Shown here: positions 6,452-49,747 of the stretch, piece by piece
How positions within the stretch are numbered: the stretch's first letter is position 1
Layout of the letters: the number at the start of each line of letters is the position of its first letter
Assembly: GCA_013288325.1 (NCBI GenBank)
Contig: JABDCB010000004.1
Coordinates: 4,485 to 68,484 of the forward strand
Origin: Bacteroidota bacterium
GTDB lineage: Bacteria; Bacteroidota; Bacteroidia; Palsa-965
Length of the DNA: 64,000 nt
Reading direction: 5' to 3'
The notes under the pieces: generated by a model
What the model was told of the DNA's origin: nothing
The model's input: only the letters and a program-made list of their open reading frames with translations
Databases searched by the model: none
Translations under genes and position numbers: made by a program

Positions 6452-7132
6452 ATGTCTATCGTTCAGAATATTACTCAGCTCAAATCTAAAATTCCTGCAA
6501 GAGTCAGCCTTGTGGCTGTTTCAAAAACACATCCGGTTAATCTTATTCAGGAGGTGTATGACACCGGTCAACGGATTTTCGGAGAAAACAGGGTGCAGGA
6601 ACTCGTATCAAAACACACCGATCTGCCAGCAGATATTGAATGGCACCTCATCGGGCATTTACAAACAAACAAAGTAAAAGATATAGCCCCTTTCATCAGT
6701 CTGATTCATTCCATCGACAGCTTTAAACTGCTGGAGGAAGTCAATAAACAAGCCCGAAAAAACAACCGGGTTATCGACTGTCTTTTACAGGTATATATTG
6801 CAAAGGAAGAAACCAAATTCGGAATGGATTTTGAAGAGGTAAGCTTCCTTTTAACATCAGAGGCCTTGCAACAACTCAAGTACATTCGTATTTGCGGTCT
6901 TATGGGGATGGCTACCAATACAGCCGATATGGATCAGGTTAGAAAAGAATTCCGATCATTGAAAACTTTTTTTGATTCCTGCAGTTTCCCCGCACCTTCC
7001 CATCCTAATCATGCTTCCCTCAAAGTGGTTAAACCTGTTCTTTCTATGGGCATGAGCAGTGATTATCAGCTGGCTATTGAAGAAGGTAGTACCATGATCC
7101 GGGTAGGAAGTGCCATTTTCGGAAGCCGCTGA
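6452..7132 (+). CDS. yggS: YggS-family pyridoxal-phosphate homeostasis protein
   Basis: VAVSKT (PLP lysine), FGENRVQE, WHLIGHLQTNKVK. Confidence 0.9.
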   Translation: MSIVQNITQLKSKIPARVSLVAVSKTHPVNLIQEVYDTGQRIFGENRVQELVSKHTDLPADIEWHLIGHLQTNKVKDIAPFISLIHSIDSFKLLEEVNKQARKNNRVIDCLLQVYIAKEETKFGMDFEEVSFLLTSEALQQLKYIRICGLMGMATNTADMDQVRKEFRSLKTFFDSCSFPAPSHPNHASLKVVKPVLSMGMSSDYQLAIEEGSTMIRVGSAIFGSR

Positions 7133-7198
7133 TATCGTATTCTTCACGGCCCCCTTTATCAAACAAATTGTATTTTTGTTCTCCTTACCTGATTAACC

Positions 7199-7738
7199 AT
7201 GGAATATATTGGAAGCCGGATATCCTATTTACGCAAGCCGGATGAGCTCAGTATTGTGATCTCCGTTTTTTCCGACAAAAAGAAAAACCGCCTGCTTCTT
7301 GCCTGGATACTGGCATGGACCATGGGAGGCCTGGTGATGATGGGCTATTTTTTTACCGTGCATGAAAACCAGTTAAAAACTATGGTACTTGTTTGGCTGG
7401 GCTTTTGGTTTTACTTTGAATACAAGGCCTGGAAGGCCTATACATGGAGAAGACATGGAAAAGAAATTATCAAGATAGGCAAGGGACACTTGTTTTATAA
7501 ACGGGATAACCGGGGAGCTGGTAAAATTCAGGATTTCCAAACCGAAGCCATACAGCAATTTGAAAAATATGCAGGCCGTCAGAATGATTTTATCAATACA
7601 TTGATCAGCTCGTATTGGGTGATTGCCGGAGAAACGATTTCTTTCCGCTATTACGGTAAAGAGGTGGCATTCGGGATGCAGCTCCAGGAAAAAGATACGG
7701 CTGCTCTGATGGAACTGCTTCGTACGGAATTACGCTAG
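7199..7738 (+). CDS. hypothetical membrane protein
   Basis: 179-aa ORF with two hydrophobic helices (LLLAWILAWTMGGLVMMGYFF, MVLVWLGFWFYF). No family recognised. Confidence 0.6.
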   Translation: MEYIGSRISYLRKPDELSIVISVFSDKKKNRLLLAWILAWTMGGLVMMGYFFTVHENQLKTMVLVWLGFWFYFEYKAWKAYTWRRHGKEIIKIGKGHLFYKRDNRGAGKIQDFQTEAIQQFEKYAGRQNDFINTLISSYWVIAGETISFRYYGKEVAFGMQLQEKDTAALMELLRTELR

Positions 7739-9211: not shown

Positions 9212-10291
9212 CTATTGAGGACTTTTCAATCTGAAAACAACACTTTTGACGCAACGGAGACTGGCACCTTCTCTGAATTCATTCATTATCAATGCCTTTG
9301 CCTTGGAATCAGCGAATACTTCTTCCAGATTTTTTATCAATCCGCAAGGCACTCCGGCTATGTCAAGGGCTGTTTTTAGGTCCTCAGACACCCATTTACC
9401 GGCCGCATTCTGAAGATCCTTCAAAAGGTCTATTCTTGTCCTGACCCGATTGGGGTTGGAATCAAATCTCCGATCCTTGGCCAGTTCCGGGATTGTTAGC
9501 ACCTTACACAAGGCTATAAATTGTTTATCATTTCCAACAGCCAAAACCAGCCATTTATTGTCTGAGCACAAGAGTGTTTCCCCATAAGGTGCAATATTGG
9601 GATGAAGTGATCCTTTTAACCCGGGTATCATGCCGCATTGCAGGTAATTGGTGGCCTGATTGGCCAGGGAGCTCACAGCAGCATCATACAACGAAATGCT
9701 TACCGCACTCCCCTTGCCGGTTTGAAGTCGGCGAATCAAAGCTACGAGCAATGCTTCTTTTAACTGATGGCCCGCCAACAGATCAATAAATGCAACCGGC
9801 ATCTTTATGGGTCCGCTGCCGCCAGTCCCGTTCATGGCCATATATCCGGTTTCGGCCTGCAATACCAGATCAAATGCGGCACGTTCATCCTTTTCTCCAT
9901 AACCGCTCAGATGACCGAAGATGATTTTTTCATTGTATTTATACAGCTCTTCATAAGTCATACCCATCCGCTCCGCTTCTTTAGGTCTGAAATTGCTGAT
10001 TACGATATCTGCTTTCTTTATCCACTCATAAACCTGTGCCCTGTCCTTATCGTTTTTAAGATCCAACAGATGCGATTCTTTGCCCCAGTTCACAGAAGCA
10101 TAATATGCAGATACGGTCGCCGAAGCATCTTCTTGGGGCAATTTCCAGTTGCGGGTCAGATCCCCTCCGGTGCCTTTATTTTCAACCTTTATAACCCTGG
10201 CGCCCAGTTCGGCAAAAAACATACCTGTAGATGGCCCGGCAAGTACATTGGCAAGCTCTACAACCAGAAGATCCTTAAAGATGGTTTCCAT
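9212..10291 (-). CDS. CaiB/BaiF family (class III) CoA-transferase
   Basis: N-terminal LLVVELANVLAGPSTGMFFAELGARVIKVEN is the hallmark of family III CoA-transferases. Confidence 0.88.
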   Translation of the reverse strand: METIFKDLLVVELANVLAGPSTGMFFAELGARVIKVENKGTGGDLTRNWKLPQEDASATVSAYYASVNWGKESHLLDLKNDKDRAQVYEWIKKADIVISNFRPKEAERMGMTYEELYKYNEKIIFGHLSGYGEKDERAAFDLVLQAETGYMAMNGTGGSGPIKMPVAFIDLLAGHQLKEALLVALIRRLQTGKGSAVSISLYDAAVSSLANQATNYLQCGMIPGLKGSLHPNIAPYGETLLCSDNKWLVLAVGNDKQFIALCKVLTIPELAKDRRFDSNPNRVRTRIDLLKDLQNAAGKWVSEDLKTALDIAGVPCGLIKNLEEVFADSKAKALIMNEFREGASLRCVKSVVFRLKSPQ

Positions 10292-10327
10292 ATCAAAATG
10301 TGTCCGGTGAAAGTAAAAAAAATAGCG

Positions 10328-10335
10328 TATATTTG
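10328..10335 (+). promoter_or_regulatory. -7 promoter box TATATTTG for the desaturase gene
   Basis: Exact TAnnTTTG match 45 nt upstream of the ATG at 10380. The box overlaps the track's upstream alternative start at 10335, which argues against that start. Confidence 0.45.
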
Positions 10336-10379
10336 TGGACTACAGATATACTGGAAAATATATTACTGGAAAAGATAAG

Positions 10380-11447
10380 ATGCAGCCACGTATCAAATTC
10401 AACAATAAGAAATACTCCGACTTCGTCTCCGATCTCAAGCAAAGTGTTAACTCTTATTTTGAAACCAATAAGATTTCAAAATACGGGGATTACCGGATGG
10501 TAATCAAAACAGTTTGCATGCTTTCCCTTTATATTGTTCCTTATTTCCTCATCATGTTTGCTCATTTTTCCGAAGGCATCATGCTTCTGATGTGCGTATT
10601 GATGGGAACAGGGCTGGCCGGTATCGGATTCAGCATTGCACACGATGCTTTACACAGCGCTTATTCCCGTAACGAAAAGGTAAACCGTTTTTTGGGTATG
10701 ACCATGAATTTTGTGGGTGCCAATGACTACATGTGGAAAATCAAACACAATATCAAACACCATACCTTCACCAATATTTATGAAAAGGATGAGGATCTGA
10801 GTGTTGTCAAATTTCTTCGTTTATCACCTAATGCTCCTTACCGCAAGGTTCACCGTTTCCAGCATATCGTTGCTTTCTTTGCCTATTCATTGCTGTCGCT
10901 GAGCTGGGTATTTTATACCGATTACAATAAAATATTCCGCTACAAGGACAATACACATCCCCGGAAGGAAATAATCAAACTGCTAGCATTCAAGGTGTTT
11001 TATTACACCTATATCCTGGTATTGCCCCTGGTGTTTTTACCTATCGTATGGTGGAAAGTGCTGCTTGGTTTTGTGGTGATGCATCTGGTAGGTGGTTTTA
11101 TCATCACCATTGTTTTTCAGCTGGCCCATGTTATTGAAGATACAGCGCATCCTGAAGCGGAAGAAAGCGGACTTGTTGACAATGCCTGGATTGTGCATCA
11201 GATGGAAACAACGGCTAATTTTGCTGTCCGTAACCCGGTTATCACCTGGTTTGTAGGCGGTCTTAATTTTCAGGTCGAACACCATTTGTTTCCCCAGGTA
11301 TGCAGTATTCATTATCCTGCCATATCACGGATTGTGGAGAATGTAGCCCAAAAGCACCAGATAGCGTATTATAATAAACATACCTTTCTGGGAGCCATCT
11401 CTTCCCACTACCGTACACTTCGCAAGTTCGGCCATTCCAGAAGCTGA
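10380..11447 (+). CDS. membrane fatty-acid desaturase
   Basis: Three histidine boxes (HDALH, HNIKHH, QVEHHLFP) and multiple TM helices. Confidence 0.88.
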   Translation: MQPRIKFNNKKYSDFVSDLKQSVNSYFETNKISKYGDYRMVIKTVCMLSLYIVPYFLIMFAHFSEGIMLLMCVLMGTGLAGIGFSIAHDALHSAYSRNEKVNRFLGMTMNFVGANDYMWKIKHNIKHHTFTNIYEKDEDLSVVKFLRLSPNAPYRKVHRFQHIVAFFAYSLLSLSWVFYTDYNKIFRYKDNTHPRKEIIKLLAFKVFYYTYILVLPLVFLPIVWWKVLLGFVVMHLVGGFIITIVFQLAHVIEDTAHPEAEESGLVDNAWIVHQMETTANFAVRNPVITWFVGGLNFQVEHHLFPQVCSIHYPAISRIVENVAQKHQIAYYNKHTFLGAISSHYRTLRKFGHSRS

Positions 11448-45930: not shown

Positions 45931-47094
45931 TCAGCTCAAAAGGAAAAGCCTGTCCCAATCAGCAGGTATTTCAAAACCATATTCTGCGCTTAGTAATACA
46001 AGCCCAATACCGGCTATTCCCTCCAGCATCCCATATTCAGGCTGCCATCCCAGATCACCTTGCCAGGCCCTATAGCCAGCCAAACCGGATCCGTGAATAC
46101 GCATCTGTTTGGTCTGTTTAAGCCAGTAATATACTGACTTTAGAAACTCCGGCTCTCCTGTTGCTTCATAAAAACGAAAAAACATCTGACAGAGACCAGC
46201 TGATCCGTGACAAAAACCAGCATCGTATACCTGATCCAGCTTAAGATTCCTTCTTTTGCCGCATTCGGACATCAGACGAAAGCCCTTTTCCTGAATATCA
46301 TGCCAGCCAAACAGCTCACCTGCTTTCCAATGGGCTAAAGCAATTCCCATATCACCTATACACCAGGCCATACGCGTAAAGCCAGAAGCGGCAGGATAGA
46401 GATTACAAAAAGAAGAACGGGAATTTTCAATTTTGAAATATGAATACAAGCCTATCAACCGTTCACAAAGTATCTTGATTCTGATCCGCTCATAACCCGA
46501 CTTATACAGATGAATGAGTACCAACAACAGTCCTGAAATACCATGTGAAAGCGAAGAATTCAGATACCCCTCTGTAAAGCAATAAATTCCCTTTTCATCA
46601 TTAAACCGGGTAAATCCTATACGGCTGGTATTCATTCCATAAATGGGATACAATTCATCAATAAAAGCCCGAACGGAGTCCTGATGAAGACATCCTTCAC
46701 TTGACAAACACCAGATAATACCGGTAGCCCCATGTATAAAGTCGAAATTTTTTGCGTGCAAATATTCCGGTAAAAGATTCCGTATCATTCCCTCCAATTG
46801 CAGATACAGCTCATCTGCTGCATGACAAGCAGGTTTCATTTTCTTCAGACATTTAATCAGGTAATAAACTCCCGACAAACCGGATATAGAGCCTGAAATT
46901 GTTCCATGCTCATTAATACGCTTTACCAACAAAAAGATATCTTCTTCGGGGTCATATTTTTTTCCGGTAACCTGACTTAAATACAAATGGAAATAAATGG
47001 CTGAAGCCATTCCACCTAAAATATCATACCGGTTATCTTCAATACCAGAGGCTATCTTCATAGCCTTCTTCATCTCAAGAATCAATTCCGACAT
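45931..47094 (-). CDS. LanC-type lanthionine cyclase-like protein
   Basis: All three LanC hallmark motifs are present: SLSHGISGLL (acid/base His), MAWCIGDMGIA (Zn Cys) and GFCHGSAGL (Zn Cys-His), plus repeated GxxG helical-toroid repeats. Confidence 0.85.
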   Translation of the reverse strand: MSELILEMKKAMKIASGIEDNRYDILGGMASAIYFHLYLSQVTGKKYDPEEDIFLLVKRINEHGTISGSISGLSGVYYLIKCLKKMKPACHAADELYLQLEGMIRNLLPEYLHAKNFDFIHGATGIIWCLSSEGCLHQDSVRAFIDELYPIYGMNTSRIGFTRFNDEKGIYCFTEGYLNSSLSHGISGLLLVLIHLYKSGYERIRIKILCERLIGLYSYFKIENSRSSFCNLYPAASGFTRMAWCIGDMGIALAHWKAGELFGWHDIQEKGFRLMSECGKRRNLKLDQVYDAGFCHGSAGLCQMFFRFYEATGEPEFLKSVYYWLKQTKQMRIHGSGLAGYRAWQGDLGWQPEYGMLEGIAGIGLVLLSAEYGFEIPADWDRLFLLS

Positions 47095-47491
47095 AGGAGG
47101 ATACTATAAGTGATTTTAAATATGGAAAGGAAAAGAATGCCAAAAAACAAAAAAGGATGCAATTGTAAATAGTAACCAGAGGACCAAAAGAATAACAGAG
47201 ATTGATGAGAAAAATATTAGTCTGAATAGCCAAAGCGAGACAACTTCCGACAGATCTTAAACCTTTAAACAACAAACAAACTCCGGCCAGGAGCTGGAAA
47301 CATCCGACAATTTGAATATATAAAGGAGCCGCGCTGAAATAATAAAAGGTAAGAGCACGAAGTCCCATCGTGTCATTCAGAATGATAGGGTGAGTTTGAT
47401 TAAAATGTAAGCGGGCGATTTTCAGCAAACCGAAAAACAAAAAATTCAGTGCAATACAAAAACGCAATAATCTTCTTAGTCTCTTCCACAT
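47075..47491 (-). CDS. small polytopic membrane protein (about 4 TM; DoxX/MauE-like by composition, unverified)
   Basis: 138-aa hydrophobic ORF between the precursor and LanC genes. 20-nt overlap with the LanC start. Confidence 0.7.
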   Translation of the reverse strand: MWKRLRRLLRFCIALNFLFFGLLKIARLHFNQTHPIILNDTMGLRALTFYYFSAAPLYIQIVGCFQLLAGVCLLFKGLRSVGSCLALAIQTNIFLINLCYSFGPLVTIYNCILFCFLAFFSFPYLKSLIVSSYVGIDS

Positions 47492-47504: not shown

Positions 47505-47540
47505 GAAGCCCCGGCTTTATAAACTCAATGCCGGGGCTTC
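47505..47540 (-). terminator. perfect 11-bp stem-loop between the precursor gene and the downstream maturation genes (attenuator or RNA-stabiliser candidate)
   Basis: GAAGCCCCGGC (47505-47515) pairs with GCCGGGGCTTC (47530-47540) around a 14-nt loop. It starts 7 nt after the precursor stop. No clear U-tract. Confidence 0.5.
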
Positions 47541-47546
47541 AGTCAT

Positions 47547-47765
47547 TTACTGCGCCCCACTTCCCCCGCACTGAGCCTCTGTATAGTTACAGATAGGCCC
47601 ATTGGTGCAACCTGTGGTGCAACGACAGCCAAGCGACCATACCTGCGAACCGATGGTTGTCCATTGCGCATCGCCTCCTCTTATCGCTCTCAGGCTTTCA
47701 TCTTCCAAACGAACGATGGTTTCTTTGTTCAAAGCTAACTTGCCTTTCTTTTTTTTGTCTTTCAT
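47547..47765 (-). CDS. RiPP precursor peptide with Bacteroidota-type double-glycine leader and Cys/Ser/Thr-rich core
   Basis: Leader MKDKKKKGKLALNKETIVRLEDESLRAIRGG. The 41-aa core DAQWTTIGSQVWSLGCRCTTGCTNGPICNYTEAQCGGSGAQ has 5 Cys and 9 Ser/Thr. Confidence 0.75.
   Translation of the reverse strand: MKDKKKKGKLALNKETIVRLEDESLRAIRGGDAQWTTIGSQVWSLGCRCTTGCTNGPICNYTEAQCGGSGAQ
47550..47672 (-). other. predicted core peptide (after GG cleavage)
   Basis: Residues 32-72 following IRGG. Confidence 0.6.
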
Positions 47766-47860
47766 TTTATGTTGGTTTTAGTTCTTAATAATTTCATTTC
47801 TGAAACAACATTAACAATACATTTCTGGGAAATAAAATATATTACTCATACTTCACCATA

Positions 47861-47893
47861 AGCCCTGTGAACACATTGGCTACCCTGACAATA
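47861..47893 (-). promoter_or_regulatory. candidate direct-repeat operator (AGCCCTGTGAACA / TACCCTGACAATA, 20-bp phase) upstream of the precursor gene
   Basis: CCCTG pentamers at 47863 and 47883, between the LytTR regulator stop and the precursor start. Weak similarity only. Confidence 0.2.
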
Positions 47894-47907
47894 AATTTTT
47901 TGGTTAA

Positions 47908-48627
47908 TCAAACAATCGTGAGCCTCTTCAGCAATTCTTCTTTGTAGGTAGCTCCAATAGGTATTACACGGGTTTTGTTTTGATAATTCAAAACAATCTC
48001 ATTTCCGGAAATTTCACGGATAGGATAAATAGAGATAATATAAGACTTATGAACCCGGATAAACTGTCCTTCCGGAAGAATCCGTTGCATCCCGGACATG
48101 GTCTTATACAAAGTAATATTCCCCTGATGGGTAGCAATAATCACATAGTTTCCTGCAGCTTCCACAAACAAGATATCCCTGTAAATAACCTTCACCTTTC
48201 GTCCGTCCATATCGGCAAAGAAAAACTCAGAATCAACGGATGTTGTTCTTTGCAAGGAGTTTTTAAGCCTATCCATACACACTTTAAATCGCTGGAAACT
48301 AACCGGCTTTAACAGATAATCCATCACTCCATGATCGTATCCGCTAAGTGCATATTTATCACAGTCAGAAACAAATACAAATACAGGCATATTCCTGCCG
48401 GCCTTGGTTTTCAGAGCAGCAATAAATTCCATTCCGTTCAAATACGGCATATGTACTTCCAGAAAAATCAGATCCGGTGTATACAATTCATAAGCAACCA
48501 AGGCTTCCCGCGGATCGGCAAAGGATGCTTTGAGATGGAGATCGGAGAACATACGTATATGTTCACGAAGCAAATGAATGGATGTTTCCTGCCCATCCAC
48601 TATCATACATGTGATTAAGGGTTTCAA
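47908..48627 (-). CDS. LytTR-family response regulator with Glu at the phospho-acceptor position
   Basis: The receiver aligns by eye to AlgR/AgrA. PDLIFLEVHMPYLNG has E57 where the conserved Asp sits; DD is replaced by DG (VDGQE); Ser/Lys (VSD, LLKPV) are retained. The C-terminal LytTR domain contains FIRVHKSYII. Confidence 0.88.
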   Translation of the reverse strand: MKPLITCMIVDGQETSIHLLREHIRMFSDLHLKASFADPREALVAYELYTPDLIFLEVHMPYLNGMEFIAALKTKAGRNMPVFVFVSDCDKYALSGYDHGVMDYLLKPVSFQRFKVCMDRLKNSLQRTTSVDSEFFFADMDGRKVKVIYRDILFVEAAGNYVIIATHQGNITLYKTMSGMQRILPEGQFIRVHKSYIISIYPIREISGNEIVLNYQNKTRVIPIGATYKEELLKRLTIV

Positions 48628-48718
48628 AACAGATTATTTTGAGAAAGTCCTGGAAGACTGTTTCCGATTAGCTGCACTTCATCTCACGCCTCCTTCGATA
48701 ATTGTGAATCAAAATTAG

Positions 48719-49747
48719 GTGTTCATTTATGGGTTTCCATATATATTATTCGAAATTGTTTTCAGCCGTGATGTACTTCGTGTTTTGACTGATGAAATAA
48801 TAACAGTTCCTTTATTTCCTATTTTATTGAGCTGGCATCTGGGATTTTCGTTTCCTATAAAGTACTTTAGCAGGTTTGCTTTGTATATACATCACCCCAC
48901 CTTTCTTTTTTATTATCTTCGATCCGTGTTCAAGTATATCACCCATACCTTCTATCAGACCTTTCTAAACGCCGAGCAGGAATCAACCGGTTATATACTG
49001 GCTAATGGAAAACGGTTTGATCGAAAATTATTGATCGTATGCCTTTTTACGGCTGTTTGTTTAACACTTATCCATTATTTCCAGGAAACCAGTTTTGCTT
49101 TTGAGTTTCTCAGAAATATAGGAGCGGACAGAATTGCAGACAGGCTGGAAGAAAGGCTTCATCATTCTGTTCATGCACAATTATGGCGACTGGCCTGGTG
49201 GGCGGGATTAATTGTCTTTTTCTACCTGTTGGTTCCCATTGCGGTAATACGTTTTGTATTTAAGGAGAAGCTGAGCGAATACGGACTTCGGCTGAGGGGG
49301 GCTTTTAAGGATATTCGCATCTATATACTCATGCTGGCAGTGATGATTCCCCTCGTACTCTTTTTTTCGGGCACCAAGAGTTTTCAGGCACGTTATCCTT
49401 TCTATGAGCTGAAACCGGGAGAGTCTTTAATACCCGATTTTATAATCTGGGAAGGGCTGTACTTTTTACAATTTTTTTCGCTTGAATTCTTTTTCCGCGG
49501 TTTCCTGTTACATGGATTAAAAAATCGCTTTGGCTTTTACAGTATTTTTGTCATGACCATTCCGTACTGTATGATTCATTTCGGAAAGCCTTTGCCGGAA
49601 ACACTGGCAGCCATCATTGCGGGGATTGTGCTGGGCATACTGAGTTTAAAAAGCCGCTCCGTGTTTCTGGGGGTACTTATCCACTATAGTGTTGCAATTA
49701 CCATGGATCTGTGCGCACTGTGGCAGAAAGGGTTTTGGAATCACTGA
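48719..49747 (+). CDS. CPBP-family (CAAX/Abi) intramembrane protease
   Basis: Motifs LEFFFRGF (ExxxR), CMIHFG (FxxxH-like) and IHYSVAITMD, with multiple TM helices. There is no ATG in the first ~200 codons, so the true start (GTG/TTG) is uncertain and probably lies downstream of 48719. Confidence 0.75.
   Translation: MFIYGFPYILFEIVFSRDVLRVLTDEIITVPLFPILLSWHLGFSFPIKYFSRFALYIHHPTFLFYYLRSVFKYITHTFYQTFLNAEQESTGYILANGKRFDRKLLIVCLFTAVCLTLIHYFQETSFAFEFLRNIGADRIADRLEERLHHSVHAQLWRLAWWAGLIVFFYLLVPIAVIRFVFKEKLSEYGLRLRGAFKDIRIYILMLAVMIPLVLFFSGTKSFQARYPFYELKPGESLIPDFIIWEGLYFLQFFSLEFFFRGFLLHGLKNRFGFYSIFVMTIPYCMIHFGKPLPETLAAIIAGIVLGILSLKSRSVFLGVLIHYSVAITMDLCALWQKGFWNH

Follow-up and report, generated by a model that had tools for sequence, protein, structure and literature searches.

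Gene content of the locus

The locus was situated in a 64 kb stretch of DNA from a soil metagenome assembly, which was analysed at full length and is referred to as the window. On the minus strand, the gene for a LytTR-type regulator was followed by a lanA-type precursor gene, a stem-loop, a gene for a membrane protein and a gene for a stand-alone LanC cyclase. Flanking genes had housekeeping functions and included a split transketolase, an ECF sigma factor, ychF, parE/parC and a D-Ala-D-Ala carboxypeptidase. A T9SS sorting domain was also encoded in the window, which, like the leader type described below, points to Bacteroidota.

The precursor gene (47547..47765, minus strand) started with ATG and encoded 72 amino acids, comprising the leader MKDKKKKGKLALNKETIVRLEDESLRAIRGG and the core DAQWTTIGSQVWSLGCRCTTGCTNGPICNYTEAQCGGSGAQ. 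On the same strand, the leader codons (47673-47765) specified 31 residues with the end RGG, the double glycine being residues 30-31. The core codons (47550-47672) specified 41 residues and the stop codon occupied 47547-47549. Against the NCBIfam model NF038153 (‘class I lanthipeptide’ leader, cutoff 22 bits), the leader scored 36.4 bits with an E value of 4.3e-9, which bore out the Lys-rich GG leader of the Bacteroidota type named in the original prediction. The match to TIGR04149, a generic model of Bacteroidota GG leaders, was marginal, with 25.5 bits at a cutoff of 25 bits. Within the leader, KLALNKETIVRL corresponded to LxLxKx5L, the leader motif of class I LanAs of Bacteroidetes (Walker et al. 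2020, PMC7268733). Such leaders frequently end on GG and are cleaved by a C39 protease (PMC7268733). In the precomputed annotation, the precursor carried PF28317 (Lant_leader_dom) and the label ‘natural product precursor’. It is of a known kind and had already been labelled automatically; the core family itself is rare and uncharacterised.

The core contained five Cys at positions 16, 18, 22, 28 and 35 and nine Ser/Thr at positions 5, 6, 9, 13, 19, 20, 23, 31 and 38. Trp was located at positions 4 and 12, and the C-terminus was GGSGAQ. The predicted core length of 41 aa, the Cys positions, the two Trp and the tail were all exact on re-reading of the ORF. The motif of the core family was W-T-T-I-G-S-x-V-W-S-L-G-C-R-C-T-T-G-C-T. 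The computed monoisotopic mass of the unmodified core was 4223.79 Da, compared with approximately 4219.76 Da for the all-disulfide form and 4133.73-4061.69 Da after five to nine dehydrations. When all small ORFs of the window were scanned for the leader motif, no second precursor emerged, in agreement with the expectation that no paralogous precursor gene was nearby.

Directly upstream of lanA, the LytTR-type response regulator (47908..48627, minus strand) was syntenic in a genus-level relative (L005) and in a sister population (L028). A LytTR regulator was also present at the head of the P0004 cluster. The gene is probably the regulator of the cassette. At the phospho-acceptor position, the window's protein carried Glu (PDLIFLEVHMP) and the L005 orthologue (6774-7487) carried Gly (DLVFIGFTMA). 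No histidine kinase gene was adjacent, and on L030, a contig of the sister population, the regulator gene (1630-2293) was split into pieces of 155 aa and 63 aa. The regulator looks phosphorylation-independent, and it is possibly dispensable. The 142 nt upstream of lanA (47766-47907, minus strand) contained no Bacteroidota -7 box TAnnTTTG. Such a box was found upstream of the regulator gene (48710-48717), and a sigma-70 promoter scan remained at chance level. Transcription of lanA may depend on the LytTR regulator or on a different sigma factor. Divergent from the regulator, a CPBP/Abi (Rce1-like) intramembrane protease was encoded on the plus strand (48719..49747). The gene was syntenic in the LanB-less lineages described below, and the protein was 65% identical to its L005 orthologue. 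The protease is a possible member of the module and may be immunity-related.

A perfect, GC-rich stem-loop of 11 bp (47505..47540, minus strand; -25.3 kcal/mol, z -2.75) was located 7 nt past the lanA stop. A strong hairpin was found at the same place in L028, L005, L001 and L010, which together with the window makes five diverged loci, and the hairpin sequences were unrelated. A hairpin after lanA is part of the classical lantibiotic-operon layout and results in more precursor mRNA than enzyme mRNA. The stem-loop is probably a leaky terminator or mRNA stabiliser placed between lanA and the genes that follow.

The membrane protein (47075..47491, minus strand) comprised 138 aa with four long helices. 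Its gene was always placed between lanA and lanC, and its 3' end overlapped the start of lanC by 20 nt. Orthologues were present in L005 and in two further relatives, L001 and L123, and a paralogue closed the L001 cluster. No significant Pfam or NCBIfam family was assigned, and a word search returned only one close homologue. The L005 orthologue matched MauE weakly (E 0.0024). The AF2 model of the window's protein had a pLDDT of 78.6 and its best PDB fold neighbour was NACHO/TMEM35A (TM 0.63-0.65), which we take to be a member of the DoxX family; a DoxX-type match in the fold search was seen at E 0.12 only. On these matches, the predicted fold is described as DoxX/MauE-like. As to function, the protein is a candidate immunity or accessory factor; immunity is our guess, prompted by the paralogue that closes the L001 cluster.

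The LanC cyclase (45931..47094, minus strand) comprised 387 aa and matched PF05147 with an E value of 8.6e-32. Residues H184, W244-C245 and C295-H296 were invariant in four family members. In the alignment with NisC, SLSHG corresponded to GLAHG, AWCIG to AWCYG and FCHG to ICHG. In NisC, the zinc ligands are Cys284, Cys330 and His331 and the catalytic His is His212. By this alignment, the Cys-Cys-His zinc ligands and the catalytic His of the window's LanC are intact. The numbering of NisC His212 and Tyr285 was taken from PMC9934072.

Loci with and without a dehydratase

Pfam searches of ORFs of at least about 220 aa detected no LanB (PF04738/PF14028), neither full nor split, in the 64 kb. The same searches detected no C39 peptidase or C39-ABC exporter and no radical SAM, kinase/lyase or other dehydration enzyme. 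LanB, LanT and HlyD of a relative, used as tblastn queries, also found no match in the window. The original prediction had read the gene as a precursor whose core fits lanthionine rings. This was sustained by the leader, the LanC and the clusters of relatives; it did not mention that the locus lacks both the dehydratase and the exporter on which such chemistry depends.

Homologues were retrieved with word-indexed and exhaustive HMMER searches. About eight precursor homologues were found among 1.84 billion representatives, and LanC followed in every case with readable context. Full clusters were present in L001 (P0003, on a contig of 77 kb) and L123/L124, comprising lanA, a membrane protein of 134 aa, LanC, LanB, a C39-ABC LanT and HlyD. 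The LanB proteins were full-length, with 1038 or 1040 aa, and were encoded directly after LanC in L001 and L123. The L001 cluster held an additional second small membrane protein. Over their whole length, the cores of L001 and L123/L124 were 70-74% identical to that of the window, and 30 of the 33 residues at core positions 1-33 were identical. A protein of 67 aa from the search of representatives, P0007, showed LLETK in place of GG, loss of C22 and T23 and a Lys-rich tail. This protein may represent a copy in decay or one put to a new use. Two further hits of that search, P0005 and P0008, were dismissed as unrelated repeat proteins.

LanB-less loci, which held no more than the regulator, lanA, the membrane protein and LanC, were found in the window, in L028-L032 and in L005-L008. 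L028-L032 represented the sister population, with 13 contigs from several soil metagenomes and DNA approximately 92-95% identical to the window. In L005-L008, the genus-level relative, the flanking housekeeping proteins were 85-93% identical. All LanB-less loci shared one position, flanked by the CPBP gene on one side and the ECF-sigma/transketolase genes on the other.

A tree was calculated from 72 LanCs, 58 of which had a LanB within 4 kb; it was a quick tree with unrooted polarity. The six members of the family, including the LanB-linked L001 and L123, formed a clade with an SH-aLRT of 100. Inside this clade, the LanB-less LanCs formed a single sub-clade (SH-aLRT 97). This grouping would be explained most simply if lanB-lanT-hlyD had been lost or relocated once, before the window and L005 lineages diverged. 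Measured from the node that unites the six LanCs, branches comprised 1.16 substitutions per site for the window and 0.96 for L005, compared with 0.57 for L001 and 0.61 for L123. The LanB-less branches were thus about twice as long as the LanB-linked ones, which could reflect a relaxed or changed function.

Searches for a LanB elsewhere gave no candidate for the window. Among 80 metagenomic LanB loci from a LanB-profile scan, none of them from samples holding the window's organism, no locus contained this precursor or membrane-protein family. A protein search with the LanB of L001 yielded 666 relatives, and none was linkable to the window's genome. P0091 from this search was set aside as an unrelated cluster from other samples. 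A LanC-profile scan of GTDB representatives, a collection without the window's genome, recovered distant LanCs only, with at most 32% identity.

Other precursor-cyclase arrangements were observed in the collected contigs. The P0004 contig (JGI 3300059473) carried a homologous precursor in a cluster with two precursor-cyclase pairs behind one LytTR regulator. The regulator was followed by lanA (58 aa), an erythromycin-esterase-like protein and LanC, and then by lanA (65 aa) and another LanC. An ABC-2 transporter pair came next, and the last gene was large and truncated, with at least 597 aa. A widespread cluster type on the marine metagenome contigs L113-L122 started with lanA, an erythromycin-esterase-like protein, LanC, a luciferase-like monooxygenase, LanB and a further lanA. 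After these came a number of unknown genes and a C39-ABC exporter, with C39 split from ABC in some contigs.

Selection on the core and its candidate Ser/Thr-Cys pairs

Between the window and L028, lanA showed 15 synonymous and 2 non-synonymous differences, with a pN/pS of 0.04. The membrane gene and lanC had values of 0.11 and 0.13, respectively, within the range of the neighbouring genes. Purifying selection acts on the whole trio, and pN/pS ruled out a decaying pseudogene remnant. Compared with L005, synonymous sites were saturated and all three ORFs were intact. The NF038153 score, the homologues in independent assemblies and the excess of synonymous differences place the precursor beyond chance. 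Taken together, these data support the assignment of ORF 47547-47765 as a true LanA, that of a class I lanthipeptide, with a leader of the Bacteroidota LxLxKx5L-GG type.

Identity between the window and L005 amounted to 85% for the core, 58% for the leader and 43% each for the membrane protein and LanC. The LanB-bearing pair L001 and L123 was 97% identical in the core, 93% in the leader, 75% in the membrane protein, 73% in LanC and 72% in LanB. In all lineage pairs, conservation decreased from the core to the leader to the membrane protein and LanC, the latter two being about equal. In RiPP systems, cores are usually variable and enzymes conserved, so that the order found here is the reverse. 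The conservation of the core above leader and enzymes in all pairs speaks for selection on one and the same mature structure, be a LanB linked or not. The near-constant core points to a tightly constrained interaction with a target or receptor.

The alignment of homologues comprised eight sequences. S9, S/T13, C18, S/T19 and C28 were present in all eight. C22 and T23 were present in seven and jointly absent from the remaining one, a degenerate homologue in which the GG was missing too. For the C-terminal T/S...C, either both residues or neither were found in seven of the eight, the exception being P0009, which had the Thr without the final Cys. T20, which is without an obvious Cys partner, varied between T and A. 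Conservation of Cys alone would have favoured a disulfide peptide; in the eight homologues the Ser/Thr partners were kept as well, and the lanthionine reading survived this check. The number of Cys was always odd (5, 5, 5, 5, 5, 5, 3 and 3). Five Cys cannot all form disulfides, and with the odd counts and the conserved Ser/Thr partners an all-disulfide peptide was judged unlikely. Candidate ring pairs would be S9 or S13 with C16/C18, T19 with C22, T23 with C28 and T31 with C35.

The spacing had been predicted to be nisin-like, and Ser/Thr were indeed located N-terminal of the candidate Cys. The likeness did not extend to the lipid II-binding motif of nisin- and gallidermin-type lantibiotics, SxxxCTP(G/S)C (PMC7268733), which was absent from the core and from all eight homologues. 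The relevant core segment was S13-L-G-C-R-C18-T-T-G-C22. Its C-T-T-G-C (C18-C22) resembles CTPGC of ring B, with S13 upstream of C18. However, the stretch S13-C18 is one residue longer than SxxxC, Thr replaces Pro and an extra Cys16 is located in the putative ring A. The nisin leader also differs, with FNLD and cleavage by NisP, whereas the leader of the window is of the GG type.

Proposed maturation of the peptide and comparison with known systems

We consider it probable that the locus is a three-gene satellite cassette, whose product is matured by a LanB and an exporter encoded elsewhere. The ancestral cluster would have lost or relocated LanB and the C39-ABC exporter/HlyD in this lineage, leaving lanA, the stem-loop, the DoxX-like membrane protein and lanC, with the LytTR regulator at the head. 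The precursor would be made in excess, assisted by the leaky hairpin. A LanB from elsewhere in the genome would recognise the shared leader and dehydrate Ser/Thr via glutamyl-tRNA, and the LanC of the cassette would then close up to five thioether rings in the N-to-C direction. A C39 peptidase-exporter, likewise from elsewhere, would cut after GG and secrete a presumably active peptide of approximately 4.06-4.13 kDa. The membrane protein would be the candidate immunity factor. Comparable gene content was found in other Bacteroidota. Two to three LanCs and many precursors per single LanB were detected in L012, L015, L022, L023 and L027, and by analogy this suggests that a LanB can be shared. 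In L019 and L021, a lanA with an L1a leader was located directly upstream of LanC, and the 10 kb to each side contained no LanB. The pair in L019, a chromosome of Ulvibacterium sp., spanned 9501-11197 with LanT and HlyD nearby, and that in L021, Aquimarina atlantica, spanned 9525-11026. The genome of Chitinophaga pinensis contains several dehydratase/cyclase pairs (PMC9680876). Against the satellite cassette stand the 64 kb free of LanB and C39 peptidase and the LanB-locus and protein searches, which returned no linkable candidate acting in trans. The roughly doubled branch length of the LanB-less LanCs, the missing TAnnTTTG box upstream of lanA and a search for RNA runs that returned none also weigh against it.

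The same gaps could be read as those of a non-producing remnant, in which lanB and lanT were lost, the membrane protein, perhaps with LanC and the CPBP protease, serves as orphan immunity and the peptide, unmodified or with disulfides, acts as a signal through LytTR. LanB, LanT and HlyD are missing at the locus in three lineages, the LytTR regulator always adjoins the GG-leader peptide, the CPBP/Abi-type gene is syntenic and the LanCs of the LanB-less clade stand on longer branches, all of which such a remnant would accommodate. We nevertheless regard it as unlikely. Immunity alone leaves the low pN/pS of the precursor and the intact, constrained LanC unexplained, and the Ser/Thr ring partners stayed invariant despite saturated synonymous sites. 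Disulfides could not pair all five Cys, and a regulator without phospho-acceptor Asp or kinase partner offers no visible classical peptide-sensing circuit.

Another reading, to which we assign still less weight and which we consider improbable, is that the trio is self-sufficient and LanB-independent: LanC, possibly with a redox-associated membrane protein, would form cross-links or modify Cys in some other way, with no glutamyl-tRNA-dependent dehydration of the LanB type, or an unrecognised enzyme would carry out dehydration. The trio is the conserved nucleus of every locus, LanB-bearing ones included, the overlap couples translation of the membrane gene to that of lanC, the membrane gene encodes a DoxX/MauE-like fold, and lanA-lanC pairs without LanB recur in L019 and L021. 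The somewhat longer LanC branches of the LanB-less clade leave room for this reading as well. If it were such a module, the long retention of the trio at a housekeeping locus without dehydratase or exporter would be explained. LanC is, however, known solely for the addition of thiols to dehydro-amino acids (PMC9934072), and the 64 kb held no gene for an alternative dehydratase, a kinase/lyase or a radical SAM enzyme. In L001 and L123, moreover, the trio directly precedes a full-length LanB, so that the ancestral chemistry would have needed LanB. A radical-SAM-modified GG-leader peptide of the TIGR04149 type, or an unmodified class II-like bacteriocin with LanC nearby by chance, is very improbable. 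The TIGR04149 score just above its cutoff speaks for it, but the NF038153 score was higher, no radical SAM gene was found among ORFs of at least 220 aa in the window and LanC followed every homologue with readable context.

To our knowledge, very few lanthipeptides of Bacteroidota have been characterised (pinensins and Ped15.1/15.2). With the pinensins of Chitinophaga pinensis and Ped15.1/15.2 of Pedobacter lusitanus NL19, the window shares the leader type, the GG site, a core with Cys and Ser/Thr and a stand-alone LanC. LanB, the C39-ABC exporter and HlyD are matched only in the clusters of the window's relatives. In contrast to these systems, the locus is without LanB or LanT, the gene for a DoxX-like protein separates lanA from lanC, the core shows no relation to characterised peptides and, in the window's family, the core is conserved above the enzymes. 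Prochlorosin precursors are encoded far from ProcM, and lanthipeptide proteases can be unclustered (PMC8960859). Such distributed RiPP pathways have likewise scattered genes, and one enzyme is presumed to serve remote substrates. The precursor in the window differs in that it retains its own cyclase, and the remote part would be the dehydratase. No description of a class I system with its own cyclase and a remote dehydratase was found in the literature.

The points of interest are the long conservation of a cassette without dehydratase and exporter and the conservation of the core above the enzymes. The dehydratase-less cassette provides a clean natural test of whether a class I cyclase can work with a dehydratase encoded apart. 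If class I pathways run with a remote LanB, mining rules that require LanB beside LanC would miss such loci. If the genome holds no LanB, LanC would have a role that does not involve dehydration, and this would be truly unexpected. The peptides represent a new core family, in which the mature part is near constant while the enzymes diverge to approximately 40% identity.
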